A DNA stretch of 35,824 nucleotides from NCBI GenBank assembly GCA_038227875.1, contig JBBRPR010000079.1, forward strand, positions 1 through 35,824, given 5' to 3'. Of the stretch, positions 1,496-32,025 are shown piece after piece. The first letter of the stretch is position 1; each line of letters starts with the position of its first letter. The notes under the pieces were generated by a model. The model saw nothing but the letters and a program-made list of their open reading frames with translations, was not told where the DNA came from and ran no database searches. This stretch comes from Planctomycetota bacterium (GTDB taxonomy: Bacteria; Planctomycetota; SZUA-567; H5-PLA8). The translations under genes were made by a program, and so were the position numbers.

Positions 1496-1536
1496 CGTTC
1501 ATTTCGCTTCGCCGGGCTCATAGGATTCCTCCCACA

Positions 1537-1953
1537 ATGACGCGCATTGGCTTCGTTCTGTGTTTTGGTTTGTCGCTGTTTCTCGGCTCCGCACACGCGG
1601 CGGATGCAAAAGGCGCGGAGAAAGATCCGCTCGCCAAATTCTCCGATGACGATTTGATCAAGATCGATTTCTGCTTTGAAAAATTCTGCGCGGCGGTCGC
1701 GGCCAAGGACGCGAAGACCGCGGCGGCGTTTCTCGACGAGATGCCGAAGAACCTCGCCAAGCTGGACCTGAGCAAGGACGCGGACAAGACGACGTTTCTG
1801 AAGGCGTTTGAATCGTTCGTGGGCGCGTCGATCACGGCCTCGCAACGCCTGGCCGGTGGCATCGGGCAGGTGACGTACACGGACAAAGGCGGCGCGGAGA
1901 AGACGCAGCGGATGCAGAACGTCGGCGGGCGCTGGAAGCTGACGGGGCAGTAA
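1537..1953 (+). CDS. Secreted hypothetical protein, possibly NTF2-like fold
   Basis: Signal peptide ending AHA; helix followed by beta strands, ending GGRWKL; host-like codon usage. Confidence 0.7.
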   Translation: MTRIGFVLCFGLSLFLGSAHAADAKGAEKDPLAKFSDDDLIKIDFCFEKFCAAVAAKDAKTAAAFLDEMPKNLAKLDLSKDADKTTFLKAFESFVGASITASQRLAGGIGQVTYTDKGGAEKTQRMQNVGGRWKLTGQ

Positions 1954-2036
1954 TGAATACGGAATGAGTCGGGAACGTCAGGGGGAGTTGAGGGCGGGAG
2001 TCGGGATTCGTAAATCAGAGAGCGAGGAGTGACATC

Positions 2037-2492
2037 ATGAAGAAAAAGTACACGCAGATTGCAGCCATTCTCTTTGCCATGGTGTCCATGGCGGTCATGG
2101 CCGAGCCGATCCTGGCGCAGAAGCCGTTTCTCGCTCGCGTGCGCAAGCACTACCAGCTCGACCGTGCCACCGGCAATTGCAAGCTCTGCCATGAACTCAA
2201 GCCGCGCGAAGAACCCAGCTCGAAGAACCTGAACAAATTCGGCCTCGTGATTCAGGCCGATCCGGACATGAAGCCGCTGCTGGGCAAGGATGAAGACTAT
2301 AAGTTCAGCGAGAAGGAATTGGATATTCTCGAGAAGGTCGTCGTGAAACACGAGAACGAAGACAGCGACGGCGACGGCGCGACGAACAAGGAAGAACTGG
2401 ACCTCGGCACGTTCCCCGGTGACGCGACGAACACGCCGGACAAAGCGAAGCTGGAGAAGTACCGCAAGGAGCATCCGGCTGAGAAGAAGTAG
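2037..2492 (+). CDS. Secreted monoheme c-type cytochrome-like protein with DSDGDG Ca-binding-like motif (paralog 1)
   Basis: GAGGAG RBS, signal peptide, CKLCH, LNKFG, DSDGDGATNKEELDLGTFPGD. Confidence 0.8.
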   Translation: MKKKYTQIAAILFAMVSMAVMAEPILAQKPFLARVRKHYQLDRATGNCKLCHELKPREEPSSKNLNKFGLVIQADPDMKPLLGKDEDYKFSEKELDILEKVVVKHENEDSDGDGATNKEELDLGTFPGDATNTPDKAKLEKYRKEHPAEKK

Positions 2493-4421: not shown

Positions 4422-5174
4422 TTAGCGACGTCCGCCGCCGCGGGAGAAACCGCCGCCGCCCCGACCGTAGCTGTAGCCGCTGCCACCGTGGTAGCCGCCA
4501 CCGTAGTATCCGCCGCCGCCGTGATAGCCACCGTATCCACCGTGGTATCCACCGTGGTAGCCACCATAGTAGCCGCCGTAGTATCCATTTCCGCAGTAAC
4601 CACCGTGACCGTAGTGACCGCCGAACGAGAAGCCAATCGACAGACCACTATAGTACGGGTAGCCACCGTAGTAGCTTGAGTAGTACGGGTAGCCGCCGTA
4701 GTAGACGGGGTAACCGGCATCCACATACGTTACCGTTGACGGGACAACGTAAGTTGAAGGCTGGATGTAGGTTGTCGTTGCCGGGGCGATCACCTGGGGT
4801 TCGGACTGTACCGGCGCCTGTTCGGTCGTCGGCTGATCGGCGACTCGGCGAGCGGCGATGGTTGCATCAGTCTTACGCAGCCAGCCGTGGTCGGTGACGG
4901 TCTTGTTGGACAGCGGTCCAACGTTGAGCGGTGTGTTTTCATTACCCTTGATCAGGGCAAGGATTACATCGTCGGAAACCTTGTGGTCTTTGAGCGCGAT
5001 GATGTTTTCGGCGCTGGCTTGGAAAGCGGGCTGTTGCTGGGCCCATGCAAGAATGACGTCTTTGTTGACTCCGCCCTCGGTCAGTCTGATCGTGTCGCTG
5101 ACGACGTCAGCAGCCATTACCGATGCACCGACACAGAGCACAGCCACCAAAAGGACTTTTTTCGCTATGAACAT
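4422..5174 (-). CDS. Secreted protein with small helical N-terminal domain and Gly/Tyr/His-rich low-complexity tail
   Basis: GAGGAG RBS before ATG 5174; signal peptide; GVNKDVIL/KVSDDVILAL helical repeat; GGYY/GGYH repeats; RGGG tail. Confidence 0.82.
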   Translation of the reverse strand: MFIAKKVLLVAVLCVGASVMAADVVSDTIRLTEGGVNKDVILAWAQQQPAFQASAENIIALKDHKVSDDVILALIKGNENTPLNVGPLSNKTVTDHGWLRKTDATIAARRVADQPTTEQAPVQSEPQVIAPATTTYIQPSTYVVPSTVTYVDAGYPVYYGGYPYYSSYYGGYPYYSGLSIGFSFGGHYGHGGYCGNGYYGGYYGGYHGGYHGGYGGYHGGGGYYGGGYHGGSGYSYGRGGGGFSRGGGRR

Positions 5175-5353
5175 CGTGTAACTCCTCCTCACGGTTGTCT
5201 TTCTATATTATACGACGCGTGTCACGCATTATTCATCGGTTTTTTCGGATTTACAACTCATCGTTTTACGACTTACCCTACAGGCGCGTCCTTTTAATTG
5301 TGGTAAGCTCAAGCTGCTGTTGTACTAGCTGGTCCGACCCGTGGGTCCCATTA

Positions 5354-6265
5354 ATGGCAAAATTTTCAGCAGAAGCCTATCTTCGTCCCGAAATCATTCG
5401 CCAAGTCCAGCGCTTCGATCTGAAGGCGAAGTTTGTGATGGAGGGGTTTCTCTCGGGGCTGCATGGTTCTCCATTTAAGGGCTTCTCGGTAGAGTTCTCC
5501 GAACACCGCAAGTACGTCCGCGGGGACGACGTGCGCAGCATCGACTTTAAGCTCTGGTCGCGCACGAATCGTTATTACGTCAAACAGTACGAAGCCGAAA
5601 CGAACCTGACCGGCACGCTGATCGTCGATGTTTCCGCGAGCATGGGCTACGCAGGCAAGCCCGGCGCGCTGACGAAACTGGAATACGCGACGTACCTGGC
5701 CGGGGCAATGGCGTACTTGATGGTCCATCAGCAGGACCCTGTCGGGCTGATCACGTGCGGCGACAAGATACACAATTACTTGAAGCCGAAAAGCCGGCCA
5801 TCGCATCTGCTCTCGATTTTGAAAGTGTTGTCGACGACGCAGCCGAGCGGGCCGACGCGACTGGCGGAGAATCTGCACCAGATCGCCGAGATGATCGATC
5901 ACCGCGGCATGGTGATGATTTTTTCAGATCTGCTCGACGACGCGGGCGAAGAGAAGGTGCTCGACGCGCTGGCGCATCTGCGTTACCGCGGACACGATGT
6001 GATTCTGTTCCAGATTTTTGACGCGGCGGAGACGCAGTTTCCGTTCACGGAGTTCACGCGGTTTGAGGACATTGAAGACACGTCGAACACGCTGACGGCC
6101 GACCCGCTCTCGCTGCGCGCGGCGTACCTGACTGAAGTGAAGGCGTTTTTGCAGCGGTACAAGGACGAATGCATCAAGCGGCACATCGATTTCGTGCCGA
6201 TCGATACGTCGGCGAGTTTTGATAAGGCGTTGATGGCGTACTTGCAGATGCGCACACGCGGATAA
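5354..6265 (+). CDS. DUF58 (VWA-like) protein of MoxR-associated clusters
   Basis: GLHGSPFKGFSVEFSEHRKY..GDD.RSIDFK, VKQYEAETN, DVSASM; ATG 5354 chosen over the upstream ORF start. Confidence 0.92.
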   Translation: MAKFSAEAYLRPEIIRQVQRFDLKAKFVMEGFLSGLHGSPFKGFSVEFSEHRKYVRGDDVRSIDFKLWSRTNRYYVKQYEAETNLTGTLIVDVSASMGYAGKPGALTKLEYATYLAGAMAYLMVHQQDPVGLITCGDKIHNYLKPKSRPSHLLSILKVLSTTQPSGPTRLAENLHQIAEMIDHRGMVMIFSDLLDDAGEEKVLDALAHLRYRGHDVILFQIFDAAETQFPFTEFTRFEDIEDTSNTLTADPLSLRAAYLTEVKAFLQRYKDECIKRHIDFVPIDTSASFDKALMAYLQMRTRG

Positions 6266-6272
6266 TTAGAGA

Positions 6273-8702
6273 ATGTTTGAAGCGCCACTTCTACTCTGGG
6301 GAATGATCGCTGCGGCCGTGCCCGTGATTCTGCATCTCACAGGGCGTAGCCAGCCGATCGTTCATCGCTTTCCGGGGATGCGCTTCATTTTGAAATCGCA
6401 GCGGGCCAGCTCGCGCGCGTTTCGGTTGAAACATTGGCTCGTGCTGCTGCTGCGGATTCTGGCGGTGCTGTTGATCTGCCTGGCGCTGGCGCGGCCCTAT
6501 CTGGGGTCCAGCGGCGTGGCGGCGTGCGGGACGTTTTTTGGCGTGATTCTCGCGGCGGCGACGGGGTGGGCGCTCTTCCGGCGTGAATTTATCGCGGGGG
6601 CGGTGACGCTGTTGGCGTTGCTGGCGCTGTATTCGTCGCTGCCGGATCTGTCGCCGCAGTTGGTCGGATCGCTGCACGGCGACGTTGTGATCGTGCTCGA
6701 TCAGTCGCTGAGCATGGCGTATCAGGAGTCCGACGCGTCGCGCTTTGAACGCGCCAAGCGGCAGGCATCCGAACTGCTCGACCGGCTTTCGGCCGATTCC
6801 CGCGTGGCACTGCTGCTGGCGGGAAAAAATGTCGATCGGGCGCAGGGACGCCTGACCTATCGCATCGATGCGGTTCGCGAGAAATTGAAGGAGGCGAAAC
6901 CCACGGCCGGCGGGTTGGATTTGGGTCGAGCTCTACAGGCGGCCGAGGAAATTCTGGCGCGCGATGCTTCGGCGCGCACTGAAGGCGCGCCCAAGCAGAT
7001 TGTGTTCTTCAGCGATCTGCAGCGCAACGCGTTTGAAGCGTACGCGTCGAATCACGTGATGGCTGTCACGCCAAAGGACGCGCCGGCGAAGCCGAGCCTC
7101 GTACTTGTCGACGTGGGGTCGGATGAAGCGCGCAACGGCGGCGTGCTGGGGCTGTCGCTGCCGGGAACGATTTTGCCTGTCGATTCGACCGAAACGCTGA
7201 CGGCCAAAGTGCGGCTGATGGACAGCAATCACGCCAGCCTGGTCGAATTGTTTCTGGACGGCAAACGTGTGGATCAAAACCAGATTAATGGCGGCGGGCG
7301 CGACGTGGTGGATGTTGAATTCCGCTTCCAGACCGGGGCGCCGGGGCCGCATGGGCTGACGGTGCGGCTGGCGGATTCCGACCGGCTGCCGCTGGATCAG
7401 GAATGCCACGTGACGTACGTCGCCGGCCGGCCGGACCGCGCGTTGATACTGGAATCTCCCGCGGGTGCCGGCAGTGCCGACAAGCACGGTACGGGATTTT
7501 TTATCGACAAGGCCCTCGATCCGGAATCATCCAGCGACGAGGAAGCGGTGATGGGGATGAGCGGCGTGACCAGCGTGCTCAAACCAGCGGAAGAATTGAA
7601 CGCGGCGAAGCTGGCCAACTACAAGGTTGTGATTCTCGCCGACAGCGGGAGTTTAAGCGAAAATTCATGGGCAGCGCTGCAGCAGTGGACCAACGACGGC
7701 GGCGGTCTGTTTGTCTGGGCCGGTTCGAACACCGATCCGGCCTCGCTGAAGAAGTACGGCTTTCAGGAATTTGCGATTCACCGCGGACTGCTGCCGGCGA
7801 CGATCAACGAAATGGTGACGCTCGATCCGCCGCAGGATGTGAAGATCGTTGCGCCCGAGCACCCGCTGCTGGCGCACTTCACGCAGGATGTGTCGCGCGA
7901 TTTGAGCCGCACGCAGGTGCGCCGGATGCTCAAAGTTTCTCCCGACAACGGTGAGGGTGGAAGCGCGGTCGTGCTCAGTGCAGCCGATTCACCGCTGTTG
8001 CTGGAGAAAAGTTACGGCCGCGGTCGCGTGCTGATGTTCACCATCGATCCGGGCCTGGGCTGCAGCGACCTGGTGAAGCACGGCGGGTCGTTCGTCACGT
8101 TGATGCTCGACGCGGTACGTTTGCTGGCGCAGAGCGAGGGCGATGTTCATGCGCGTTTCGGCCAGCTGCTGGCACTGACGTTGCCGGTCGGGGCGGCGGA
8201 TGGCAAGGTCTATTGGACGCAGCCGGGAGCCACGGATGCGAAGGTGCTGCGCGCGGAAAATCTCAACGTCGACGCCACGCCGGGTTCCAAGCCGGTCGCC
8301 GGGCCTGTAACACTGAGCGTGCCGCCGCTGATGATGACGGGTTTGCATCGTTTCAGTTGGACGCCCGCCAATTCGAAAACACCGGTGCAGCGCATCCTCG
8401 CCGTGAATCACGACGCGAGCGAAGTGGACTTGAGCAAGATCAAGAAAGCCGACGCCGAAAAAATCTTCGGCGAGGCCAAGCCGGAGATCGTCAAGAGCTA
8501 CATCGACGCGATGCTGTTCAAGGCGCAGGCGACGGCGAGCTCCGAAGAGCGGCGGCATGAATTTTCGGCATCGCTGATCGTGGTGTTGCTGGCGCTGCTG
8601 CTGGCGGAGAGTTTTCTCTCCAACCGTTTCTACCGCGGCGACGATGAATCCGTGAGCGCGGTCGCGGACGCGAACGCGGAGGTGGCGCATGGCGCAAGCT
8701 GA
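6273..8702 (+). CDS. BatA N-terminal double-TM domain plus VWA domain membrane protein
   Basis: PVILHL...FPGMRF...LLLRIL..LALARP BatA motif; MIDAS-like DQSLSM and FSDLQ; GGGLFVW GATase-like segment; C-terminal TM LLLAESFL. Confidence 0.88.
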   Translation: MFEAPLLLWGMIAAAVPVILHLTGRSQPIVHRFPGMRFILKSQRASSRAFRLKHWLVLLLRILAVLLICLALARPYLGSSGVAACGTFFGVILAAATGWALFRREFIAGAVTLLALLALYSSLPDLSPQLVGSLHGDVVIVLDQSLSMAYQESDASRFERAKRQASELLDRLSADSRVALLLAGKNVDRAQGRLTYRIDAVREKLKEAKPTAGGLDLGRALQAAEEILARDASARTEGAPKQIVFFSDLQRNAFEAYASNHVMAVTPKDAPAKPSLVLVDVGSDEARNGGVLGLSLPGTILPVDSTETLTAKVRLMDSNHASLVELFLDGKRVDQNQINGGGRDVVDVEFRFQTGAPGPHGLTVRLADSDRLPLDQECHVTYVAGRPDRALILESPAGAGSADKHGTGFFIDKALDPESSSDEEAVMGMSGVTSVLKPAEELNAAKLANYKVVILADSGSLSENSWAALQQWTNDGGGLFVWAGSNTDPASLKKYGFQEFAIHRGLLPATINEMVTLDPPQDVKIVAPEHPLLAHFTQDVSRDLSRTQVRRMLKVSPDNGEGGSAVVLSAADSPLLLEKSYGRGRVLMFTIDPGLGCSDLVKHGGSFVTLMLDAVRLLAQSEGDVHARFGQLLALTLPVGAADGKVYWTQPGATDAKVLRAENLNVDATPGSKPVAGPVTLSVPPLMMTGLHRFSWTPANSKTPVQRILAVNHDASEVDLSKIKKADAEKIFGEAKPEIVKSYIDAMLFKAQATASSEERRHEFSASLIVVLLALLLAESFLSNRFYRGDDESVSAVADANAEVAHGAS

Positions 8703-11031
8703 TTCCGCCGCTCCGAAACCGCCGCAGCCGCAGGCCCCGGCGCCCGCACAGGCTGAGCCGACGGCTTCTGCCCCCGTGGATGCGGCGGCTCCGGCGGAAT
8801 CGTACACGCATTACCATTTCGAACCGTTCATTCCGGGGTGGATGTTGCTGGCGTTGTCGGCGCTGATTCTGCTGGGCGTGCGCCGCGCCTACAAACGCAG
8901 CACGCGCGCGATCCGGCCGGAGTACAAAATGGTGCTCGGCTTTGTGCGTCTCTCGGCGTGCGGGCTGCTGCTGCTATGCCTGACAAGGCCGGTGGCGGTG
9001 ACCACGCATTCGCTCACCGAAAAGGGACTTTGCTACATCGCCATCGACAGTTCCGGTTCGATGAACCTCAAAGACATGCAAGGCCGGCGTTCGCGCTGGG
9101 AGTGCACGGCCGGAATCATCAAAGATGAGCACGAAAGCCTGGATACGCTTTCGTCGAAGTTGGAACTACACCGCTACCTATTTGACGGCAGCGTTCGCGA
9201 AGTTGCCAAGCTTCCCGGCGAACAAGGCTCGACGGCAGCCGCGACGGGAACGTCGACGGACATCACCGCGCTGCTGGAAAAACTGGCGGCCGAAAGCGGC
9301 GGCAGTTCCAGCGCCGGCGCGCTGCTGATCACCGATGGCCGCCACAATCTGCCCACCGATGTCGTGCCCGCGGCGCAGGAGCTCGGACGGCTGGGCATCC
9401 CGCTTTGCATCATCGGCGTCGGGCAGGATGCGACGCCCGGCGACTTTAAAGACGTCGCGATCCGGAGTCTGATCGTGCCGGAGAAAGCGTTCGTCGGCGG
9501 GCGGACGATCTTCCGCGTCGACATTGAATCAACGCTGAAGAAGTACGAAACGGTACCGCTGACAGTAGAGGTGGACGGTAAGAAAATCTTCGAGCGCGAC
9601 ATGATCCTGCAGCCCGGCGCTAATCATGCCGCGCCGGAAGTGGAGGTGCCGTACATCCCCGACGTGCTGGGTCTGCATCGTGTCACGGCCACCATCGGCA
9701 TGGTGCAGGAAGAAGCGAACGTGATCAACAACACCGCGACGGCGTTCTTCCGCGTCTTCCGCACCAAGATTGGCGTGTGGTATGTCGAAGGCGCGATCCG
9801 GCCGGAATTCGGAAAGATCCGCGCGGCGCTGGACACGGCGCCGAACGTGAGTCTGCATGCGATCAACGCGTTCATGGCCAACAACAGCGCGTCGAACGAA
9901 CTGCTGCCGACCAAGCCGGAAGACTGGGCTCAGTTGCGGTTGGTGATCATCGGCGACATTTCGGCGCTGCGATTTGAAGAATCGGGGCTGCGCGATCTGG
10001 CCAAGTTTGTGGACGAAGGCGGATCGGTACTGATGATCGGCGGAAAATCCAACTTTGGCGCGGGAGGCTGGCAGAGCTCGCCGCTGGCCGAAGTATTTCC
10101 CGTTGAAATGTCGCCCGGAGACGGTCAGGAACCTGGGCCGCTGCGCATTACGCCGGTCGGGCAGTACGTCGATCATCCAATCTTGAGCGTGGGCGAGAAT
10201 TTTGAGGACAGCACCGTCGCATGGTTGAAGCTGCCGATGCTCCCGGGCGTTAATCGCGTTACCAGCGTGCATCCGACGGCGGAAGTGCTGCTGAAAGCGG
10301 GCTCGAAGGAACTCCTCGTCGTCAAAGAATACGGCAAAGGCCGCAGCGCCGTCTTCATGGCCGACATGACGTGGCAGTGGGTGCTGAAGGCCAATCAGCC
10401 CGGCATCCACCGCAAGTTCTGGCGCAACCTGGTCACGTGGCTGACACGCAGCGATTACCGCGACGCGGCGAAGGCCGTCTACGCCGACGCCGAGCGTCTG
10501 CAGTATTTGATCGGCGAAGAAGCGACGTTCCGAGCGCACGTCAACGCGACGGAGAAGTGGAAGGACGCGCTTAAGAACGCGCGGATCACCGTGTCGCTCG
10601 CGCGGATCCAGGGCACGACCGTGACGCAGGTCTTCACGGAAGTTGCCGGCACCGGGGCGGGGGAGTTTGCCAAGCACTTTACGCTTGGCACCGCGGGCAC
10701 GTACCGCTTCAAAGCCGTGGCGACCGGCGCTGACGGCGTGGTGATCGACAGCGATAGTATCGACCTGCAAGTCACCGCGCCGGATATCGAAGTCGACAAT
10801 CCGCGCGCGAACATCCGCCTGCTGCGCCGCATCGCGGACCTGAGCGGCGGAAAGTATTTCGACTACGGCAACGCGCACAAAGCATTCGAATACCTGCTCG
10901 CGCGTCCGTCCGGCTACTCCAAACCGCAGACGGACGTCATCGAACTCTGGAACAGCGCGTGGGTGATCGCGCTATTTGTCTCGCTGCTGAGTTTCGAGTG
11001 GCTGATGCGCAAGAAGTGGGGCCTGGTGTGA
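8689..11031 (+). CDS. VWA plus glutamine-amidotransferase-like (DUF1355-type) membrane protein
   Basis: DSSGSM and LITDG; FVDEGGSVLMIGG..FGAGGW..SPLAEVFPV; YGKGRS; C-terminal EWLMRKKWGLV; overlaps the upstream gene by 14 nt. Confidence 0.88.
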   Translation: MAQADSAAPKPPQPQAPAPAQAEPTASAPVDAAAPAESYTHYHFEPFIPGWMLLALSALILLGVRRAYKRSTRAIRPEYKMVLGFVRLSACGLLLLCLTRPVAVTTHSLTEKGLCYIAIDSSGSMNLKDMQGRRSRWECTAGIIKDEHESLDTLSSKLELHRYLFDGSVREVAKLPGEQGSTAAATGTSTDITALLEKLAAESGGSSSAGALLITDGRHNLPTDVVPAAQELGRLGIPLCIIGVGQDATPGDFKDVAIRSLIVPEKAFVGGRTIFRVDIESTLKKYETVPLTVEVDGKKIFERDMILQPGANHAAPEVEVPYIPDVLGLHRVTATIGMVQEEANVINNTATAFFRVFRTKIGVWYVEGAIRPEFGKIRAALDTAPNVSLHAINAFMANNSASNELLPTKPEDWAQLRLVIIGDISALRFEESGLRDLAKFVDEGGSVLMIGGKSNFGAGGWQSSPLAEVFPVEMSPGDGQEPGPLRITPVGQYVDHPILSVGENFEDSTVAWLKLPMLPGVNRVTSVHPTAEVLLKAGSKELLVVKEYGKGRSAVFMADMTWQWVLKANQPGIHRKFWRNLVTWLTRSDYRDAAKAVYADAERLQYLIGEEATFRAHVNATEKWKDALKNARITVSLARIQGTTVTQVFTEVAGTGAGEFAKHFTLGTAGTYRFKAVATGADGVVIDSDSIDLQVTAPDIEVDNPRANIRLLRRIADLSGGKYFDYGNAHKAFEYLLARPSGYSKPQTDVIELWNSAWVIALFVSLLSFEWLMRKKWGLV

Positions 11032-11319
11032 AGGTTAGGACGCGTGGCCCGTTTCATTGGAGCACTTCGGAACGCAGGTGGTCCGAGTGTTATTGCATAA
11101 CCGCGGCGCGTTGCGTTGAGACTCTATAAAACGCTCGACAACAGACTTATCGATCTCCAAATCCGATATCGAAATTATTAGATTTAATAACCAGCAGATC
11201 GATTTATGAGCATCAAACGCGCAGCCGCTCGCACGACCTGACTATCCAAATTCAATCAGGGTATCGACCTGTGCAGAGACCGGCGTCAGGAAAAGCCTTC
11301 TCTCTGAACAGCCGAGATT

Positions 11320-11335
11320 CGGCATGGGAAATGCC
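11320..11335 (+). promoter_or_regulatory. Possible sigma-54 (-24/-12) promoter
   Basis: CGGCATG-GGAA-ATGCC has GG-N10-GC spacing, about 80 nt upstream of the GTG at 11417; several mismatches to TGGCACG-N4-TTGCW. Confidence 0.35.
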
Positions 11336-11416
11336 CCCTTGGCTCTTCAAGAATGCTAGCTGTTGGAGCCAAGTCTCCGAATATTGAGATTCTTAGTTCC
11401 AGGGAGGAGGGTGCTC

Positions 11417-14191
11417 GTGAAACAATTAACCACATTCCTTCTAATCGCGGTTTCGATTTGTCCGATTGTGCTGTCTTCCGAATTCCCGGACATCCAGGCT
11501 GCGGATGTCGTGGATGGTCAGGCCAATACCGCGCTGCGATATGAGATGACTGTATCCGGCGGCGGTCCGATTCGAGTAACGGCAACGGACCTTCCGGAGG
11601 GGCTGTCACTGCTGGAATGCGTCATTTCGGGAGTACCGGCGCTTCCTGGCGACACGCTGGTCATTGTCAGCGCGACGAACGAGGCAGGGGTCAGCCAAAA
11701 GGCAATCCTGTTTCGGATTGCAGAAGGCGCCGGCCCGCAAGCTCCGCGTACTCCGTCAGTCTCGAGCAATCCCGCACTGATCCAAGCCGGCGTGCCTGCG
11801 ATCTTCGATTCCAATGCCACCGGACTTGCCGATTTCATATGGAATTTTGGCGATGGGTCCATCAGCACGGCGGCGCATCCATCGCACACCTATTCGCAGG
11901 CGGGTTCCTACCTGGTGACACTGACGGCAACGGTAGCCAATACTACGCGCATTGTCAGTAGCGACTTTGCAGTCTCAGTCGCGGAACAAGTACCCGGCGC
12001 GCAGACTGCGGCAAAGACGCCGCCCCAGACTTTTCCGATTACACTGAGCGTGATTAAAGCCAAATCAGCCGCTCCGTTCAGTTCCCTGGTCTTGGGCGCC
12101 ACGCCGCTGGATCCGACCCTATCGACTCAGGTGATATTTGCGGCGAAGACTTACTCGTACACGGCCACAGTCTTGTCGGCGCAGATCACGTCCACCGGGC
12201 TGAAGGTCAGCGTGCCGCCTTACTATAGCAAGGGGAAGTTCGGCGCAGGCTCTGTGACCGCGCAGATCGTGCAGGCATCGTCGACCAAATCGAACCCGCA
12301 AAAGCTGAAGATCGGCGGTCTGCCAAAGGCAAAATCTGTGGGCGCCGCCTCACTCAGCTTCGTCGATGCTGCAACGGCGATGTTGGCTGATCTGAAAGCC
12401 AATGTGAAGGGCGGAATCTATGACACCTCAACGTTCCAGTCTTCCGCCGCGCAACAGGCGACCATCCTCAATAACCTGCACGCATCCATACAATCGATGA
12501 TGGGCTCCAAAACCAGCAAGAGTAAAGCCAAGTCGTTTTCGATCGGCAGCATCAATGGTGCGGATTTGCAGGTGGACGCAAAGAATCTGGCCGTCTGCGA
12601 TTCACTGGTCGCAGCGATCGTTTCTGCTGCAGGGACAAGTTCTTCTGATACGGAGGTCGCCGTCGCCGCGAAAGCGTGGGCGGCCGCAATGATTGCAGGG
12701 AAGGGCGACGTAGCCGTGGCAGCCGCCGGTTTCACAACGGCGTACCATAATCTGGTGCAGGTGCAGACATCGAAGCGCGTGTACGCTGACTGGCAGCAGG
12801 CGGAATTCTCCCTGCTGCCGTTCAGTTCCGCACTCGATTCTCTCAGCTTATTACTGGGCAACACCGGCCTGGCCAGCAGATCTATCGCGAAAACGCCGCC
12901 GGTGGGATCGGCTCCCGGCGGCGCCCTCGCCCTCGCCGGGCTGGCTTCGATCAATGCCTCTTTCGGCGCGAATGAAAAGCGAGTCGGATTTGAGGAACTG
13001 CAGAAGGGTAACGTGCATTTCGACGACTTTATCGCCGACTATATCCTGCAGCCGCATCCGACAACCGGCTCGATATCCGGCGGCAACCTTCAGTCTCTCG
13101 CGCAATTGCTTTCAACGCTGCTGGCCTATTTTGCGAACACGACGCAGGATTCCACCAACATCCTGCCTCCACTCACCGTCTCACATCAGTCCATTCTGGT
13201 CGGTGCTTATGACCATGGCACCGTTGACGGCGACATCCTGACCATGTCGATCAACGGCAATCCGGTGTCCGGATTCAGTCCGCTGACATTGCCTGGTCCT
13301 CCGGGACCGATGGTCAGCATCAAACTCGACCCGGGCGACAATGTTCTGACAATCAAAGCATTGAATGAGGGGCAATATCCCCCCAACACCGCCACCGTGC
13401 TGGTCGACGGCACGGAGTACATCTACGACCTACCCACCGGCGGCGGCGCTGTGATCAAAATCAGCAATAGCGACAAGCTTATTTCCGCTACGAAGGTGGC
13501 GGCGCCTGACGGCACAGACAATTCCCGCGCCCTTATCGGCGTCTGTGAAGCTGTGACCATTACCGCGACGGAGGCCGTCACGTGGACTGTGACCGGCGGC
13601 GGCAGCCTGAGTTCGGCCAACGGGACGACGACGGTGTTCACGGCGCCCGATATTGCCGCGAATTGCAAGGTTACGGCGACGTATACCAACAAGAGCACCA
13701 ACTACATTACCTACGGCGTCATTCCTCCAAGCGGTCAGACTTATACTAAATTGCAGAATAGGAATGTTTACCCAGTCGGACAGGCGGGGGCCGGCATGTA
13801 CTTGAGCGTCAAGCTCACTCCTTTGAATGTCTGCTTCGGTGGCATCGATTGGAAAGAAATCGGATTGGATCCGATCAACGTCACCGGGTACTTTGTCGGC
13901 AAGGCCGGGCATCACAATCCCAATCCAGACTTCCTGCCCGTTGGAAATGATAACTTCGTTCAGGGCACAGATGACGCTTCATCGGGCGTCGGAGCCCGGC
14001 CGCAGCCCTGGTCCAACGGCTCCTACACCTGGCCGATTCCCAACAATTATATTCGTCGTGGCGCGGCAGGAAATGGATACAAGTTCGTCGATACCACTCA
14101 GACCTTTACAATTGCGGCGGACGGGACCTGTGGTGTAATCAAAGGAACGGCATCGTGCTCGAGAAATCCCAACACTGGGTACGCGCCGTAG
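11417..14191 (+). CDS. Secreted multidomain protein: putative Ig, PKD, helical region, Ig-like modules and an uncharacterised C-terminal domain
   Basis: GGAGGAGG RBS before GTG 11417 (ORF track start is TTG 11363); signal peptide; LPEGLSL..ISGVP (He_PIG-like); WNFGDG..HTYSQAGSY (PKD). Confidence 0.85.
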   Translation: MKQLTTFLLIAVSICPIVLSSEFPDIQAADVVDGQANTALRYEMTVSGGGPIRVTATDLPEGLSLLECVISGVPALPGDTLVIVSATNEAGVSQKAILFRIAEGAGPQAPRTPSVSSNPALIQAGVPAIFDSNATGLADFIWNFGDGSISTAAHPSHTYSQAGSYLVTLTATVANTTRIVSSDFAVSVAEQVPGAQTAAKTPPQTFPITLSVIKAKSAAPFSSLVLGATPLDPTLSTQVIFAAKTYSYTATVLSAQITSTGLKVSVPPYYSKGKFGAGSVTAQIVQASSTKSNPQKLKIGGLPKAKSVGAASLSFVDAATAMLADLKANVKGGIYDTSTFQSSAAQQATILNNLHASIQSMMGSKTSKSKAKSFSIGSINGADLQVDAKNLAVCDSLVAAIVSAAGTSSSDTEVAVAAKAWAAAMIAGKGDVAVAAAGFTTAYHNLVQVQTSKRVYADWQQAEFSLLPFSSALDSLSLLLGNTGLASRSIAKTPPVGSAPGGALALAGLASINASFGANEKRVGFEELQKGNVHFDDFIADYILQPHPTTGSISGGNLQSLAQLLSTLLAYFANTTQDSTNILPPLTVSHQSILVGAYDHGTVDGDILTMSINGNPVSGFSPLTLPGPPGPMVSIKLDPGDNVLTIKALNEGQYPPNTATVLVDGTEYIYDLPTGGGAVIKISNSDKLISATKVAAPDGTDNSRALIGVCEAVTITATEAVTWTVTGGGSLSSANGTTTVFTAPDIAANCKVTATYTNKSTNYITYGVIPPSGQTYTKLQNRNVYPVGQAGAGMYLSVKLTPLNVCFGGIDWKEIGLDPINVTGYFVGKAGHHNPNPDFLPVGNDNFVQGTDDASSGVGARPQPWSNGSYTWPIPNNYIRRGAAGNGYKFVDTTQTFTIAADGTCGVIKGTASCSRNPNTGYAP

Positions 14192-14201
14192 GGAGAAGAC
14201 C

Positions 14202-15068
14202 ATGTGTAGCCAATTTCCGATCCGATTCCTATTCGTCGCGCTGCTTTGCGGCATCGTATTGAACGTCTGCGCGGGAGATGAAATGAGCGCTTACACGCAA
14301 TCCGTCCGTGACGCCGTAGGCAAGGGCGATGCCACAACAGTTATGAGCATGGTCGACAAACTGGAAGAAGGATTCGGCACAGGCGGCTCGACTGAATACT
14401 TTCAGAAAATCAGCATTGTGTGTCAGAGCCTGGCTGAATCGGCCCATTGTGGCAACGCGATGTATCCGGTGCTCGTTCGTTGCGCCGATCTGCTGCTCGA
14501 AAAGGAAACCGTCAACGGTCCCTTGCGCTCTGCGCTTATCCAAAGTCAATTCGATGCCATCCAGCCGCTCTTGCGAGAGCTGGCGGCCACTACGTCGGGA
14601 CGCGACCGTGCATGGGAAGAAAACCGGGCGCATTTGATGCGGTTGGTCTCCATCTTCAGCAAACGCGTACGCAGCCGATTAATTGAGAATTTCAAACCGT
14701 TTCCCGTCTCGATAAACGTTGCGCCGCCGGAGGGTGGAGGCGACTCTGGATCCGACCCCGCGAGCATCAAAGACCCGGTGGTGCGAGCTGCCTATGTAAA
14801 ATTGATACATGAGAACTCTGAGAATACGTTAGTGAATCAAGAGCAGCGTTACCTCTCGGACTTGGCGCGCGATGGTTTTTCGCGAATCGAGGATGGCATC
14901 GTTCCGCTCTATTCGAGCGCGCCGCCGCCCTACGATGAATTATACCAATTCCTGCAATTGGGCCAATTCACGCAGACCCAACGCATCAAGATCATTAGAG
15001 GCGTCGAACGCGCCTCGAATACTCAGGCTCCGGTTGCTATTCAGAAGATACTGAAAACTGAACCCTGA
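14202..15068 (+). CDS. Secreted, predominantly helical hypothetical protein (candidate immunity/partner protein)
   Basis: Starts 10 nt after the upstream stop with GGAG RBS; hydrophobic signal peptide; no recognisable catalytic motif. Confidence 0.75.
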   Translation: MCSQFPIRFLFVALLCGIVLNVCAGDEMSAYTQSVRDAVGKGDATTVMSMVDKLEEGFGTGGSTEYFQKISIVCQSLAESAHCGNAMYPVLVRCADLLLEKETVNGPLRSALIQSQFDAIQPLLRELAATTSGRDRAWEENRAHLMRLVSIFSKRVRSRLIENFKPFPVSINVAPPEGGGDSGSDPASIKDPVVRAAYVKLIHENSENTLVNQEQRYLSDLARDGFSRIEDGIVPLYSSAPPPYDELYQFLQLGQFTQTQRIKIIRGVERASNTQAPVAIQKILKTEP

Positions 15069-15303
15069 GTAGAGAAGTTATCGAATTCGAACTGCCTTAA
15101 AGTATCCAAGTAATCATTATACCTTCGCCGTATTCCGTAGTTAAATATAACACTATATTTTTATCACAATTCGGACTATAGATTTTAAAACTGTATAAAT
15201 TAATTCCAAAATTTCGCAATTCAACCTTGCGAACGTATGAATGTTTCTTCTGGAAGTTAGCCTCCCTACCAGTCTTGTATCTAAAGAGTCAACGCAAGCT
15301 CTA

Positions 15304-15319
15304 TGGCGCGTTGATTGCA
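15304..15319 (+). promoter_or_regulatory. Sigma-54 (-24/-12) promoter candidate
   Basis: TGGCGCG-TTGA-TTGCA, one mismatch from TGGCACG-N4-TTGCW with exact GG-N10-GC spacing, 55 nt before ATG 15374. Confidence 0.65.
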
Positions 15320-15373
15320 CAGGTGAAGAAAGAGATTCTTCGTTAGAGCTGAAACATTGAGGAGGGCAAGAAC

Positions 15374-18300
15374 ATGGCTACATCTTTCGCGCCCATTGCG
15401 CAATCCAACGATTTAAGAGGTGTAATCATCTATTCAATGCGCGAGCGATTCCGAAACATGAGTCTGAGATTAGCAAAAATGGGGAACATGCGCTGTGTAC
15501 TCACCTTTTCAATGGCCGTGCTACTTCTCTTGGCGGTCGGAAACGCCAGCGCGCAGACTACTGTTTCCTCTGCGGCGACAGGAAACTGGAATTCACGCAC
15601 GACGTGGGGCACGAGTACCAATCGCACGGGAACCGTTGCGACTTCGACAGCTTCAGTCCTGGTAACGGGAACAGGGACGGTTTTCACTTCGGAGTTAGCC
15701 CCGGGAGCGGTTTTAACGACGCAAGGTGATGTAGCCATCGGGACAGTGCTGAGCATCCAGAGCGACACCCAGCTGACGCTGACTGGAAATTCTGCGGTGA
15801 CTTTGGCAACAAGTTCTTATCGCACTCAATACCCATGTGCTTCGGATGCGGTCTCCATTATTAACGGATTCACTGTGACAGAAAATATTAATGCAGCCTG
15901 TTCGTCATTGAGTTTTCAAAATAATACTGTTTTTTCCAATACGTTAACAATCAGCGGTACGAATTCACTGGTCGTTTCTGGTGCGATTGATTTACCCAGA
16001 GGATTTCTTATTGGTGTAAATACACTTGCCGTCAATGCTGGCACATTGTCGGCCGGAAGCATTGGCTTTACGAACGGTGGAATTTCCCATTTGCATGTCC
16101 TGACCATTTCCACGGGAACCGTACTGATCGCTGGAAACGTTACTCAGACGGGCAGTACCGGTAGCGCCACCATTACCTTTACGGGCGCAGGACTGCTAAA
16201 AGTCGGCGGATCCTTTTTGAATTCCAGTACAGGCACACTCAATTCGTCGCCTGGCTGTACCGTTGAATACAACGGCGCCGCTCAGACGATTGGGGACTTC
16301 GCCTACAGTAATTTGACGCTTTCAAACAGCGGTATCAAAACTTTTCTCACGGGCACCGCGGTCAACGGGAATCTAACCTTAAGCGGCACCGCCTCCGCGA
16401 CGACAGTCGCGAATTTTTCCATAGGTGGAAATCTTGATGTTGGCAGCGGCGCGGCTTTTACCGTTTCTGCAAACCGTACGCTCGGCGTCACCGGCACGAC
16501 GTCTGTGAGTGGTACGCTGACACTGGCGGGAACCGGCACCAAAACCTTCGGCGGATCGGTCGTCGTGAATACTGGAGGAGTTTGGAGTGAAACGGGAAAT
16601 TCCGCGTATTCGTTTGCAGGTAGTCTGCAGAATGACGGAACGTTCACCGCAAACGCCGGAATTCATACCTTTTCCGGGGCCGGCATGACGTTCAGTGGCA
16701 GCAATACCATTACCATTCCCAGTGTGACGATTTCCGGCACAGGTTCGCAAAATGGAGTCCTATCTGTTGGAACTGCTCTCTCGGGAGGAGGAACACTAAC
16801 ACAGGGCCCAGGGGCAACGCTATTTTTGGGCGGAACGTCTGGAATTTCCACTTTGGTTGCTACCGGCAGCAACAATGCTGTAATTTACAACGGTGGCGTC
16901 CAGGTTGTTAAAGCCATTACCTATGAACATTTGGTTATTCTCAATACAGGCGTCAAGACGCTGGCAGGCGATATTCTAGTCCAAGGAATTCTTAATATAT
17001 TCTCCGGTACCTTGGACGCAGCGGGACATACGATCACGTTGGCGGGACCCGCCACACCGCTTATTGTGACGGGAACGTTGAATCCTGCCTCGGTAATTTA
17101 CACCAGCGCGTCAGGTGCGTACATCACGGGAGGAATTACCTATACCAATTTGACTATCAACAGCACGGGTCAGATCTTTGCCGCTGCTGGCGACGTCACA
17201 GTTGAATCCGTTCTGAACGTTCAAGCTGGAGTGTTTGACGGAGTCACGTCCACCATTACTTTGATGGGATCCGGGACACCGTTCGTGGTAACCGATACAT
17301 TTAATCCTTCGGCGTCGACCGTGGTTTATTCCAGCCTTAGCGGCGCGCTCGTCACTGCGGTGCCTTACACTAATCTGATCATTAACGGTAGTGGAGTATT
17401 TACTGCTGCCAATTCCTTCGCGGTGTCCAAGGACCTCACGCTGGCCACAGGTACGTTCGATGACGGCGGCAATGTAATTACTGTAAATGGTAACATTATC
17501 AATTCCGCAGCGCACACAGGTACCGGTGAAATCCTGCTCACGGGTCGCGCGCTTGACCATGTCTTGTCCGGAATTGGAACCTTTACGAGTATCGAAGTGA
17601 ACGACCCCTTCGGAGCCACGTTCGTATCGGATATCCACGTCAACGGATTGCTGTCATTGACGAACGGAAACCTGTCGACCCCCCTCAATAATACGGTCAC
17701 CATCGGCAGCGCCGGCGACGTGACCCGGGGTTCAGGTTACGTGGTGGGCAACTTGCGTAAGGTGTACGGCGCCCTGGGATCAAAAGTATTCGAAATTGGT
17801 ACTTCCTCTGGTTATTCACCGGTCACTGTCGATGTGACCTCTGGAATTGGAAGTTTTACGGCCAGTGCAACTGAAACTCCTGAACCGTTTGCCGTCGATC
17901 CGAATACGGTCTTACATCGCTTCTGGACCCTTTCCGGAAACGTGGGTTCGGTGGATTTGCAGTTTGCGTACGTTTTTCCAGGAGACGTAAACGGCGATGA
18001 AACCAGTTATATTCTTGGCCGCGATACGGGCTTTCCATCGTGGACCTACCCCGGCGGGAGGGTCGATTCAAATACCCATACCGCTTCAATTTCTGGCGTA
18101 GTATTTTACTCCGGCAACTGGACCGCGGGAGAACGACACGGTCTGAACGGTCCTGCCACGCAGGCAATAGTGGTGTTGCCGGGTCAGACCTTAACACCGG
18201 CCGTCGGTCTTACCGGCTCGCCATCCAGCCAGACTGCGGGCACAACGTTCACTGCAGACGTCAAGGCCGTCGATTCGAATTTCAACGTCGATCCATCGGT

Positions 18301-20962
18301 CAACGGCCCAGTTTCGATTACCACCTCCGACCCCAACGATGTCGATCCCGCGCCCACCACTTTCAGCGCTGGTGTCGCCACGTTCTCCATTACAAACATG
18401 ACCGCCGACGCCAATCAGTCCATTGCTCCAGATGCGACGCCGCTGGCAAACATCACGTCGTCCGCGTATACGGTCATCGCGCATACATCGAGCACCTTGG
18501 CGTGTTCCCCCAATCCTGGCGTGGTGGGCAGTCCGGTTAATTGCAGCGTGACGGTCGCGGCCTATGCACCTGCATTCAATATGCCAACGGGAACAGTGGA
18601 CATCTTCGTCGATGGAAGCCTGTTGGCCGCTGGCACGGGTACGCTCGTGAGTGGTTCGTGTGTCATTCCTGTGACATTGCCCTTCGGCGCACACACCCTT
18701 GTTGCCGTCTATAACGGCACGCCCATTTTCTTCTCGAGCACATCGAATTCGGTGTCCGAGTCCATTGAGCAGCCCAGCACCACCACACTCGTTTCCAACG
18801 TAACGCCGTACTCGGTATTCGGGCAGCCGGTTGTTTTCACTGCGACTGTGGCCGATACGTTGAACCCAACGCAGCCCGTGAGCGGAGCAGTGCTATTCTC
18901 CGTCAACGGTCAAATTGTGTCGATGCAAACGCTGCTGAAAAATTCGGCACAATTCACGACGTCGAGTCTGCCGGTTGCGGCTGCGAACCAGGTCGAAGTA
19001 CAGTTTGTGGGTAACGGCACATTCCTGGCAAGCTCCGCCTTAGTGACACAGCAAGTGAATAAGGCAGCGACGACCACAACGGTGGTCCCCAGTGGCGTGC
19101 TCCTCTCCGGCGCCGAGATTACATTGACCGCATCCGTGGCCACGACTGCGCCAGGCGCGGGTACCCCGGCGGGCACGGTGCAGTTCTTTGACGGCGCAAC
19201 TTCCTTATCACCGTCGATCACAGTGGTGAGTGGATCGGCGGCGTATACGACCAACACGTTGACCGTGAGTGGAAACATTCATTCCATCACGGCCGTGTAC
19301 AGCGGAAATTCGGATTTCGCCACCAGTACCTCTGTGGCGGCTTCCGTCATGATCAACCCAGCCAGCACGAGCACCACGCTCACGGCCACGCCGGCTGCTT
19401 CGATCTTCGGTCAGAGCGTCGTCTTGAGCGCCACGGTCACGGCGGTTGCGCCGGGGTCCGGCATTCCCACGAGCACGGTGACATTCATGGATGGCGCTGC
19501 GACTCTGGGAACGGCCACACTGTCGTCGGGCGTCGCGACGTTTTCGACGGCTGCACTGACGGTCGGCTCGCATCCCATTACGGCCGTCTACGGCGGCGAC
19601 TCTGAATTTAATCCAAGCACTTCCAGTATTTCCAACGTGGTGGTCAGCGCCCTGCCCATTCCCGCGATTATTTCACTTAGCCCGCCGAAGGTGCTGGTGG
19701 GTTCGGCCGGCTTGAACATCCTGGTCAACGGCAGCAACTTCGATCCACTATCGGTAGTCAAATGGAATGGCGCCAGCCGTCCCACGACCTTCGTCAGCTC
19801 CACATTGTTGATCGCCGCAATTCCAGCGTCCGACCTGGCGGCGGTGGGAATTGTTCCAGTCCTCGTCACCAATTCGCCGCTGGCCACGTCCGTGTCGACG
19901 AATTTCACGGTGGCCAATCCGGAGCCCGTGGTCATTACCATGACGCCGGCCATCGCGACCGCGGGTGATCCCCCGCTGGTCATTTCACTGACGGGAATCA
20001 ACTTCGTCAGCACCTCCACAGTTAACTTCGGAGGTGTTGCGATTTCCACGGTCTTTGTTAACAGCAACGCGCTGACGGCCACGATCCCTGCTGCAAAGCT
20101 CGCGGTGGATGGAACTGTGGGTATCACGGTGGTCAACCCCGGTCCAGGCGGGGGAACGTCGAATTCGGAATCCTTCGTGATCGGAAAGTTCACCGTTAAC
20201 AGCCCGCCGACGGCCACGCCCAATCCGACGCATGTGGGACAAACTGTCGCATTTTCAGTGAGCGCGACCAACACCAACAACGATGCGATCTCCTTTGCGT
20301 GGGACTTCGGCGATTCGACCGCCGGCGCCGGCCCGACACCGACGCACACGTATTCGGCGCTCGGTACCTATACGGCGACGGTTACGATCACGGCCTCCAG
20401 TGGCGCGAAGATCGTGGCCACGGTGAACGTGGTTGTCGAGACGCCGGATATCGGTGGCGGCGCTCTTCCGCCGGGGACATTCAAGGACACCAACGGTTCG
20501 GGCATTCCAGATGAAATGTTGAGTGCCGCGGCGACGGTTGGAATTTCGACAGTCAGTTCGTCCAAACCGCTGCCCAAAGTTCGGCTGGCAATCAAGCTCA
20601 ACTTTGCCACCTCCAACAGCGATTCGATCACGCTGAGCGCGATGCTGGACAAGACAGGCGCCGGGAAGCCGCTGGTGATCAATGTCGGCGGCGTGATCAA
20701 AGCCTTCACGCTGGACGCGACCGGCAAGGCCAAGTCCGGCGGAGATTCGGTGGCTGTTTCACCCAAGACGGGAAAGTTGGCCGCCCGATTCATGCATGGA
20801 TCGTTCGCGGCGCAATTGCTCAGCTCCGGGTTGACCAACGCGACCGTTTCAGGCGTAAGCCTGAGCATTCGCGTGGGCACATTGTTCAACAATTCAATGT
20901 GGTTCGCCCAACAGCCGCAGCTCTACAAGGCCACGCAAGGCAAGAGTGGCGCGACGCGGTAG
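15374..20962 (+). CDS. Large secreted adhesin-like protein: beta-helix-like G/T/S repeats, tandem Big_3-like Ig domains, IPT/TIG, PKD and a basic C-terminal domain
   Basis: Signal peptide ending NASA-Q (alternative start ATG 15488); repeated PTGTV.F.DG/H.ITAVYSG Ig motifs; TTFVSST.L.A.IPA IPT motifs; WDFGD..HTY PKD. Confidence 0.88.
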   Translation: MATSFAPIAQSNDLRGVIIYSMRERFRNMSLRLAKMGNMRCVLTFSMAVLLLLAVGNASAQTTVSSAATGNWNSRTTWGTSTNRTGTVATSTASVLVTGTGTVFTSELAPGAVLTTQGDVAIGTVLSIQSDTQLTLTGNSAVTLATSSYRTQYPCASDAVSIINGFTVTENINAACSSLSFQNNTVFSNTLTISGTNSLVVSGAIDLPRGFLIGVNTLAVNAGTLSAGSIGFTNGGISHLHVLTISTGTVLIAGNVTQTGSTGSATITFTGAGLLKVGGSFLNSSTGTLNSSPGCTVEYNGAAQTIGDFAYSNLTLSNSGIKTFLTGTAVNGNLTLSGTASATTVANFSIGGNLDVGSGAAFTVSANRTLGVTGTTSVSGTLTLAGTGTKTFGGSVVVNTGGVWSETGNSAYSFAGSLQNDGTFTANAGIHTFSGAGMTFSGSNTITIPSVTISGTGSQNGVLSVGTALSGGGTLTQGPGATLFLGGTSGISTLVATGSNNAVIYNGGVQVVKAITYEHLVILNTGVKTLAGDILVQGILNIFSGTLDAAGHTITLAGPATPLIVTGTLNPASVIYTSASGAYITGGITYTNLTINSTGQIFAAAGDVTVESVLNVQAGVFDGVTSTITLMGSGTPFVVTDTFNPSASTVVYSSLSGALVTAVPYTNLIINGSGVFTAANSFAVSKDLTLATGTFDDGGNVITVNGNIINSAAHTGTGEILLTGRALDHVLSGIGTFTSIEVNDPFGATFVSDIHVNGLLSLTNGNLSTPLNNTVTIGSAGDVTRGSGYVVGNLRKVYGALGSKVFEIGTSSGYSPVTVDVTSGIGSFTASATETPEPFAVDPNTVLHRFWTLSGNVGSVDLQFAYVFPGDVNGDETSYILGRDTGFPSWTYPGGRVDSNTHTASISGVVFYSGNWTAGERHGLNGPATQAIVVLPGQTLTPAVGLTGSPSSQTAGTTFTADVKAVDSNFNVDPSVNGPVSITTSDPNDVDPAPTTFSAGVATFSITNMTADANQSIAPDATPLANITSSAYTVIAHTSSTLACSPNPGVVGSPVNCSVTVAAYAPAFNMPTGTVDIFVDGSLLAAGTGTLVSGSCVIPVTLPFGAHTLVAVYNGTPIFFSSTSNSVSESIEQPSTTTLVSNVTPYSVFGQPVVFTATVADTLNPTQPVSGAVLFSVNGQIVSMQTLLKNSAQFTTSSLPVAAANQVEVQFVGNGTFLASSALVTQQVNKAATTTTVVPSGVLLSGAEITLTASVATTAPGAGTPAGTVQFFDGATSLSPSITVVSGSAAYTTNTLTVSGNIHSITAVYSGNSDFATSTSVAASVMINPASTSTTLTATPAASIFGQSVVLSATVTAVAPGSGIPTSTVTFMDGAATLGTATLSSGVATFSTAALTVGSHPITAVYGGDSEFNPSTSSISNVVVSALPIPAIISLSPPKVLVGSAGLNILVNGSNFDPLSVVKWNGASRPTTFVSSTLLIAAIPASDLAAVGIVPVLVTNSPLATSVSTNFTVANPEPVVITMTPAIATAGDPPLVISLTGINFVSTSTVNFGGVAISTVFVNSNALTATIPAAKLAVDGTVGITVVNPGPGGGTSNSESFVIGKFTVNSPPTATPNPTHVGQTVAFSVSATNTNNDAISFAWDFGDSTAGAGPTPTHTYSALGTYTATVTITASSGAKIVATVNVVVETPDIGGGALPPGTFKDTNGSGIPDEMLSAAATVGISTVSSSKPLPKVRLAIKLNFATSNSDSITLSAMLDKTGAGKPLVINVGGVIKAFTLDATGKAKSGGDSVAVSPKTGKLAARFMHGSFAAQLLSSGLTNATVSGVSLSIRVGTLFNNSMWFAQQPQLYKATQGKSGATR

Positions 20963-30411: not shown

Positions 30412-30413
30412 TG

Positions 30414-31565: not shown

Positions 31566-31586
31566 GTTTGGTTCACTCCTTGTCGG

Positions 31587-32012
31587 TTACTTTTTCTGCT
31601 TCGCCACCGCGTCGTCGAGATATTCGATCATCTCCTTTACGTTGCCCGCGGTGAGCAGGTCGCGGATCTGGCGCGGAACATCAAATCCCTTTTCGTGGAA
31701 AATCAGAAAGTAATAGCAGGCCTGCTTAACGGCGGGAACTTCCTTGTGAGCAATCGACTTGGTCGCGCCCGCGGCCCAATCGAGCATGATGTTGCGCATC
31801 GCGATGTCTTCGGAGAGATCGGAGTTGTCGGAGATTTTCTGATTCACGCGGCTGCGCAACTTGCTGGCCATGCTGTCAACTTCGCTCTTCGAAACACACG
31901 TATTGAGATACGCTTCGGCCGAATCGTGGAGCTGCTGCCACGGTACATCGTACGCATGAGCCGAGACACACAGCGCCGCGGCGGCGGTGACCAGGAACGG
32001 CAGCTTTCGCAT
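31587..32012 (-). CDS. Small secreted helical hypothetical protein
   Basis: GAGGA RBS, signal peptide ending AHA, host-like codon usage, tight operon spacing. Confidence 0.75.
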   Translation of the reverse strand: MRKLPFLVTAAAALCVSAHAYDVPWQQLHDSAEAYLNTCVSKSEVDSMASKLRSRVNQKISDNSDLSEDIAMRNIMLDWAAGATKSIAHKEVPAVKQACYYFLIFHEKGFDVPRQIRDLLTAGNVKEMIEYLDDAVAKQKK

Positions 32013-32025
32013 GATCGATCCTCGT

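Follow-up and report, generated by a model that had tools for sequence, protein, structure and literature searches.

Does the C-terminal end of a long exported stalk protein in a Planctomycetota bacterium, together with the secreted protein encoded directly behind it, form an effector and its immunity protein, or does the pair serve another purpose? The two genes, here called gene A and gene B, are located on contig JBBRPR010000079.1 of assembly GCA_038227875.1, of which the forward strand was analyzed over 35,824 nucleotides (nt; hereafter the window), and a first-pass annotation had proposed them to be a new effector/immunity family delivered on a PKD scaffold. Re-examination of the open reading frames (ORFs) of the window confirmed the start and layout of the pair. 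Gene A lies within an uninterrupted plus-strand reading frame (11363-14191), in which the GTG at 11417 was chosen as start with the ribosome-binding site GGGAGGAGG directly upstream, giving a protein of 924 residues. Its N-terminus is hydrophobic and signal-peptide-like over about 30 residues, as read from the sequence and not from a cleavage-site prediction, and its sole Pfam match is PKD/PKD_4 (PKD_4, E 2.1e-11; PKD, E 1.7e-10). Gene B begins with an ATG 10 nt past the stop codon of gene A, is preceded by GGGAGAAG, and encodes 288 residues, also with a signal-peptide-like N-terminus. The exported PKD protein and the closely following secreted protein described in the first-pass annotation were thus both recovered, as was the alanine-rich segment it had placed at 12340-13150 (residues 308-578), since residues 301-590 consist of 16.9% Ala, 12.4% Ser and 10.7% Leu.

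When window:13640-14188 was used as a phmmer query against 1.84 billion representative proteins, 767 matched at E<=1e-3, of which 268 also reached <=1e-10 and 3 <=1e-30, and from these sequence matches we conclude that the end of protein A, here called the tip, is a real, large and conserved family without a name, far beyond chance. The conserved unit is longer than the domain delimited previously (13718-14188), as a Big_2-like immunoglobulin (Ig) domain always precedes the 154-residue tip and belongs to the unit, which spans residues 687-924 (13475-14188); the two together are referred to as the module. The earlier statement that the tip could not be assigned to a named family held true. Neither the tip nor gene B matched the curated Pfam or NCBIfam models, named toxin and Ntox families included, neither matched PDB sequences, and gene B had no match in PADLOC. 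Moreover, none of the 150 listed homologs had a Pfam match over the module region, PDB searches with the family profiles A4 and A5 (the latter representing the B family) gave only noise (E ~0.7), and a phage collection gave no tblastn match. In full-text literature searches on DUF4157 injection systems and verrucomicrobial polymorphic toxins, no description of the module was found, although supplementary tables could list members. In an alignment of 89 sequences, P32, E44, G54, D82, G98 and W102 (tip numbering) are invariant, H63, N76, Q125, K139 and R146 reach at least 90% conservation, and the C-terminal end (..V.R.P) is strongly conserved. For 139 of the 150 listed proteins, a tip-only profile puts the tip at most 30 residues from the C-terminus. 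The module is sparse, being found in 7 of 401 genomes sampled from the phylum of the window, in 1 of 401 from the phylum of genome G419, and in 4 of 62 genomes of the window's class, where only the window's genome (G000) and G005 hold a full tip; gene A is present in a single copy in its own 9.3-Mb genome.

What carries the module elsewhere was determined in 150 listed representatives of the 767 proteins by Pfam scans of 60 and 90 sequences. The domain eCIS_core (PF13699, formerly DUF4157), typical of cargo of extracellular contractile injection systems (eCIS), was present in 20 of them (15/60 and 5/90), N-terminal to the module in all except P0151. Other carrier domains were PKD, Glucodextran_B, Laminin_G_3, TSP3, LTD, a calpain-like peptidase and weak apolipoprotein-like helical repeats, and eight carriers had a peptidoglycan-binding domain, namely OmpA (P0064, P0076, P0078, P0128), PG_binding_1 (P0096, P0099, P0129) or LysM (P0117). 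The full-length protein P0154, a longer cluster member of P0096, combines DUF4157, PG_binding_1, Ig and tip when read by eye (HELTH-type motif). The same C-terminal domain is therefore found on unrelated N-terminal architectures, which is a feature of polymorphic toxins. A simple in-house heuristic sorted the 128 proteins with a complete N-terminus into 88 with hydrophilic low-complexity leaders, 20 with eCIS_core, 13 with a Sec-like signal and 7 with a PGKRT-type motif, and among the 45 hydrophilic leaders read by eye many (not tallied) showed the DUF4157-type motifs LQRTIGN.AV, HDFSRVPV or PPPAFQL. Since hydrophilic and DUF4157-type leaders predominate, most family members resemble cargo of contractile injection systems (CIS), and by the same N-terminal sorting the Sec-exported form seen in the window is a minority of the family. 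The protein of the window itself lacks these features, carrying a Sec signal instead and no DUF4157, and is not itself eCIS cargo. The first-pass annotation had also anticipated paralogous stalks with different tips, and one weak case was found: a search with residues 195-690 of gene A, word-indexed and so reaching only relatives that share exact 5-residue words, matched only P0156 (25% identity over 83%, E 3.8e-5), a protein without the tip and with a different C-terminal end.

An N-terminal DUF4157 or Photorhabdus virulence cassette (PVC)-metallopeptidase domain followed by a variable C-terminal toxin, often without immunity genes, is the pattern of eCIS toxins (PMC3482391, PMC8213781), and many PVC-type systems lack immunity genes (Zhang et al., PMC3482391). 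A preprint (10.64898/2026.05.27.728243) describes proteins with a disordered leader for loading and a variable effector domain at the C-terminus, DUF4157 being an optional part, and of 1130 DUF4157 toxins that were predicted, 983 carry no further annotated domain (PMC11297309). Cgo1, a DUF4157 cargo of Algoriphagus, kills E. coli when expressed (PMC8894135), and its C-terminus is a possible member of the module family.

The carriers also bear on whether the module could direct sorting or secretion, as the C-terminal beta-sandwich of type IX substrates does, with B as part of the export or attachment route. The extreme C-terminal position in most listed proteins, the conserved C-terminal end and the Ig-like sandwich fold (see below) would all suit such a role. 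However, some modules are N-terminal or in tandem, B is found in only a minority of the module-bearing genomes, and most carriers have no Sec signal and resemble cytoplasmic eCIS cargo; mainly for this last reason we rejected the sorting signal as very improbable.

Gene B follows the tip in relatives as well, as the first-pass annotation had anticipated. B-family genes, scored with a profile from five loci, were found directly downstream and on the same strand in six full-tip loci without a DUF4157 leader: the window (10-nt gap), L002 (G005, same family but another genus; gap of ~29 nt to the B ATG start at 1265), L016 (G085; 33-nt gap), L017 (G272; 4-nt overlap), L025 (a Verrucomicrobiota metagenome-assembled genome (MAG); 4-nt overlap) and L033 (a mobilizable plasmid, CP007054.1, from Opitutaceae bacterium TAV5; 4-nt overlap; E 2.8e-67 with the tip profile and 5.7e-15 with the B profile). 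All five B-adjacent tip proteins with a complete N-terminus carry signal peptides. Mean identity across five B-adjacent loci was 31% for the module and 22% for B, showing that the adjacency has survived long divergence. The B family has the core motif PP..G.DPASIKDP.VRAxY..I..N.E in its alignment (A5), and homologs of gene B are scarce, with only gene B itself found in a word index of 5.8 billion proteins and three proteins found with the profile. In contrast, B did not adjoin the module in the DUF4157-type loci L021, L022, L023 and L024, and in the four genomes that hold the DUF4157-type loci and L020, all with DUF4157 genes, it was not found anywhere (0/4). The tip genes of L021 and L022/L023 belong to CIS clusters, flanked by a DUF4157+Aspzincin_M35 gene on one side and a CIS_tube gene on the other, while L024 comes from an alphaproteobacterial MAG. 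Genome G423, with a Sec-type pair, has B and no DUF4157, and the window's own genome (88% complete) gave no match to PF13699 in a search that was positive in four of five other genomes. Hence, B occurs only where the effector would cross the periplasm of its producer, which fits immunity to an effector acting in the periplasm.

The family, carriers and fold class of the module were observed, as was the conserved adjacency of A and B, and from these we infer that the tip may be harmful, that its target may lie in the envelope and that B may bind it. We tentatively read the two genes as a candidate pair of an envelope-directed effector and an exported immunity-like partner, an interpretation drawn from sequence comparison to which we give slightly less than an even chance. 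Protein A would be a Sec-exported multi-Ig/PKD protein, the C-terminal Ig and beta-sandwich cassette of which is a portable effector module; elsewhere the same module would mostly be the payload of eCIS cargo-type proteins with a disordered leader and often DUF4157/eCIS_core. Contractile injection systems would deliver the module or, in the case of Verrucomicrobiota, Sec-exported stalks. It would then act in the cell envelope of bacteria, at peptidoglycan or close to it, a site of action hinted at by the eight fusions with peptidoglycan-binding domains, and B, exported and encoded in the same operon, would bind and neutralize the module in the periplasm of the producer in the manner of an immunity protein. 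Likewise, we hold at just under evens that the pair is a candidate for a new family, effector plus immunity-like partner, among the polymorphic and eCIS-associated effectors.

In another reading, the module would be an effector that tunes physiology, or a toxin aimed at eukaryotes, and B an unrelated co-secreted protein or the second subunit of a binary factor. Some CIS effectors indeed tune the physiology of the producer and do not kill (PMC13277306), purified AlgoCIS particles killed no cells among those tried (PMC8894135), and many eCIS toxins have no immunity gene (PMC8213781, PMC3482391). On the other hand, the fusions to peptidoglycan-binding domains indicate a bacterial envelope target, and protection explains better than a binary subunit why B is missing exactly where the protein skips the periplasm of its producer; we consider this alternative improbable.

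Structure models were obtained with AlphaFold2 using the family alignment, and both the module (predicted local distance difference test (pLDDT) 97.2, predicted template modelling score (pTM) 0.90) and the tip alone (pLDDT 97.2, pTM 0.89; ten strands) were predicted to be all-beta. With the tip alone, Foldseek returned nothing at E<=1e-3 in PDB or BFVD, VIA-align gave no convincing relative among 48,161 chains, nor did a VIA second look, and in the ESM Atlas every score for the tip and for B was below 0.9, giving no lead. The structural matches that were obtained are generic Ig, FN3, macroglobulin or pilin sandwiches, with no enzyme or toxin fold, and function is thus not readable from the fold; for these models, a lack of structural matches does not prove that the tip fold is new.

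Several of these results weigh against an effector. The modelled fold is plainly Ig-like and has no catalytic signature, no clear catalytic motif was identified in the tip, and the polar residues E44, H63, N76, D82, Q125, K139 and R146 could equally well form a binding site. Tips occur in tandem (three copies in P0003, two in P0014), and several of the 11 proteins in which the tip is not C-terminal have it at the N-terminus or internally (P0035, P0077, P0119 and P0151 among these), placements that are unusual for toxin domains. The same tip on unrelated carriers, expected from the first-pass annotation, was found with DUF4157, PKD, Laminin_G_3 and other domains, but not on RHS, VgrG or PAAR proteins, as none of the 150 carriers had RHS, PAAR, VgrG, LXG or haemagglutinin-type/two-partner-secretion domains. 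The partner is not constant either: behind the tip gene of L015 lie two exported paralogs in tandem that belong to a non-B family, and at L018 and L019, where the match covers just the Ig domain and the initial part of the tip, another exported family lies downstream. B-like C-terminal regions without a tip are found in L026 and L027/L028, and a metagenome scan from the B side gave six loci with no tip, of which only L027/L028 have enough upstream DNA to judge.

The main rival reading is that the tip is a non-toxic binding or adhesion domain, for example for cell-wall or surface glycans, which is presented at the far end of surface stalks and reused on eCIS proteins for targeting or retention, and that B serves this binding in the periplasm as chaperone, anchor or regulator and is no antidote. 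As modelled, the two domains together are similar to Ig tandems known from invasin, intimin, InvE, FdeC and LigA, the module sits distally in long proteins with many Ig domains (P0004, P0005 and P0012, for example), its conserved aromatic and polar loop residues are reminiscent of carbohydrate-binding modules, and it is fused to other wall-binding domains. Yet in most carriers, consisting of leader, linker and module in 300-500 residues, the module is the only folded candidate for a payload, and a pure binder would leave unexplained why a translationally coupled exported partner is kept across the divergence described above and on a plasmid. With the plain fold, the tandem and N-terminal copies, the lack of classical carriers and the occurrence of B on its own in its favor, a binding tip is the most serious competitor of the effector/immunity pair, although we regard it as unlikely. 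The first-pass annotation had named a non-toxic tip with an ordinary adhesion or Ig fold and without co-occurrence of the downstream family as evidence against its proposal; an Ig-like sandwich without enzyme-like match is indeed what was predicted, whereas co-occurrence with the downstream gene was seen. Its proposal of a new effector/immunity family is thus supported in part, by the portable module and the conserved A-B adjacency, and not by carriers of the RHS, PAAR or VgrG type.

The features of the pair are listed in Table 1. The spacers on both sides, which the first-pass annotation had described as AT-rich, have a lower GC content than the whole window (0.58), gene A (0.575) and gene B (0.541). 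A plus-strand scan of the upstream spacer revealed no promoter-like sites above shuffle expectation, and a simple scan of the downstream spacer no terminator-like sites.

Table 1. Positions of gene A, gene B and their parts in the window (RBS, ribosome-binding site).
Feature	Position	Strand	Remarks
Upstream spacer	11032..11416	.	GC 0.50; RBS GGGAGGAGG at 3' end
Gene A, 924 residues: putative Sec-type signal peptide, Ig-like and PKD modules, Ala/Ser/Leu-rich middle, beta-rich segment, conserved C-terminal module	11417..14191	+	
Signal-peptide-like N-terminus of A	11417..11506	+	Inferred from hydrophobic stretch
PKD domain of A, residues 116-175	11762..11941	+	Pfam
Ala/Ser/Leu-rich middle of A, residues 301-590	12317..13186	+	Composition
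Big_2-like Ig domain, first half of conserved module, residues 687-770	13475..13726	+	
Tip, residues 771-924 (154 residues), predicted ten-strand beta-sandwich with long conserved loops	13727..14188	+	
Gene B, 288 residues, putative exported partner	14202..15068	+	ORF, RBS, 10-nt gap, homologs
Downstream spacer	15069..15373	.	GC 0.37

Directly upstream of gene A lies an operon (5195-11031) encoding DUF58, BatA+VWA (809 residues) and VWA+GATase1-like (780 residues) proteins. Orthologs of its last gene were found in all 16 family relatives searched, and the genes downstream of the operon are shared with none of the four relatives examined, so that synteny says nothing on insertion of the cassette. 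Directly after the pair, 15374-20962 encodes a second giant surface protein. It is exported and 1862 residues long, has four Big_3_5 stretches and a PKD domain, and matched no family over its C-terminal ~170 residues. ORFs 30360-32078 (572 residues), 1518-2474 (minus strand, 318 residues) and 4422-5192 (minus strand, 256 residues) had no Pfam match.

The related loci showed some further peculiarities. The tip genes of L025 (7456-8393) and L015 (2953-4125) are frameshift-split and TAG-interrupted, respectively, and the downstream partner genes are intact in both. At L016, B (5925-7100, G085:C10) is an internal tandem duplicate, with two nearly identical cores of ~175 residues in a protein of 391 residues. 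At L018 (6421-11385, G184:C40), four tandem exported paralogs with a C-terminal membrane anchor follow the partial-tip gene, and L019 has a relative of this family, which may be a second partner family for the diverged tip. The downstream genes of L015 and L018/L019 were considered as relatives of B and rejected (hhalign probability <1%, with very shallow profiles). In L022/L023, a near-identical CIS segment (DUF4157+M35, tip and tube genes) is present on two contigs of one MAG, reflecting duplication either of the cluster itself or in the assembly. On the plasmid locus L033, the gene that overlaps the tip gene upstream (4552-6312) encodes a signal-peptide protein of 586 residues with YD-repeat-like sequence and, below the threshold, a match to DUF6531 (21 bits, cut-off 24.1), which looks like an Rhs-like fragment, and a Cys-rich exported protein of 178 residues and a PDZ protein are encoded downstream of B.

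If the effector/immunity interpretation is taken further, the Ig-plus-sandwich module could be a large and still unnamed payload family of contractile injection systems that harms bacteria periplasmically at the cell wall by a non-enzymatic or new mechanism, and Verrucomicrobiota would have moved the cassette to Sec-exported stalks and hence acquired the B immunity family. We consider this extended scenario somewhat more doubtful than the candidate pair as such; were it true, A and B would be the first toxin-antidote pair defined for this CIS cargo family and would offer a handle on the function of the cargo. The module family now has domain boundaries, a confident model and a set of conserved residues, and it may explain part of the 983 DUF4157 cargo proteins without annotation mentioned above (PMC11297309). 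Its Sec-exported versions supply a candidate neutralizing partner for the cargo domain. Should the pair work as proposed, one cassette moves between delivery by injection systems and ordinary secretion, and an immunity gene appears only where the periplasm of the producer itself is exposed.

Compared with known systems, the module is similar to eCIS and PVC-type toxins in that it occurs behind DUF4157 and, in many more proteins, behind DUF4157-like leaders, and in that its DUF4157-type versions, some of which lie in CIS clusters, have no adjoining immunity gene. The protein of the window differs by having a Sec signal and a PKD/Ig stalk in place of DUF4157, and the module by being an Ig-like sandwich and not an annotated enzymatic toxin domain. 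Polymorphic toxins exported by Sec and the type II secretion system (PMC3482391) share with protein A the signal peptide, the repeat or Ig stalk and a variable C-terminal cassette common to other delivery types, as well as close linkage to a downstream gene, of which some loci have duplicates. Unlike in these toxins, neither a pre-toxin domain nor a releasing peptidase domain (HINT, ZU5, caspase) was found here, a different end was seen on one weak stalk homolog only, the tip and its partner belong to unnamed families, and the partner is exported and not cytoplasmic. Adhesins of the invasin/intimin type, in which Big domains end in a binding tip, are also among the closest known systems. In the Tae/Tai and Tge/Tgi pairs known from type VI secretion systems (T6SSs), a cell-wall effector is neutralized by a Sec-exported immunity protein encoded alongside. 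Although no T6SS carrier was found, the predicted fold of the tip is neither that of an amidase nor that of a muramidase, and no enzymatic motif was identified, the logic proposed here for A and B matches that of these pairs.

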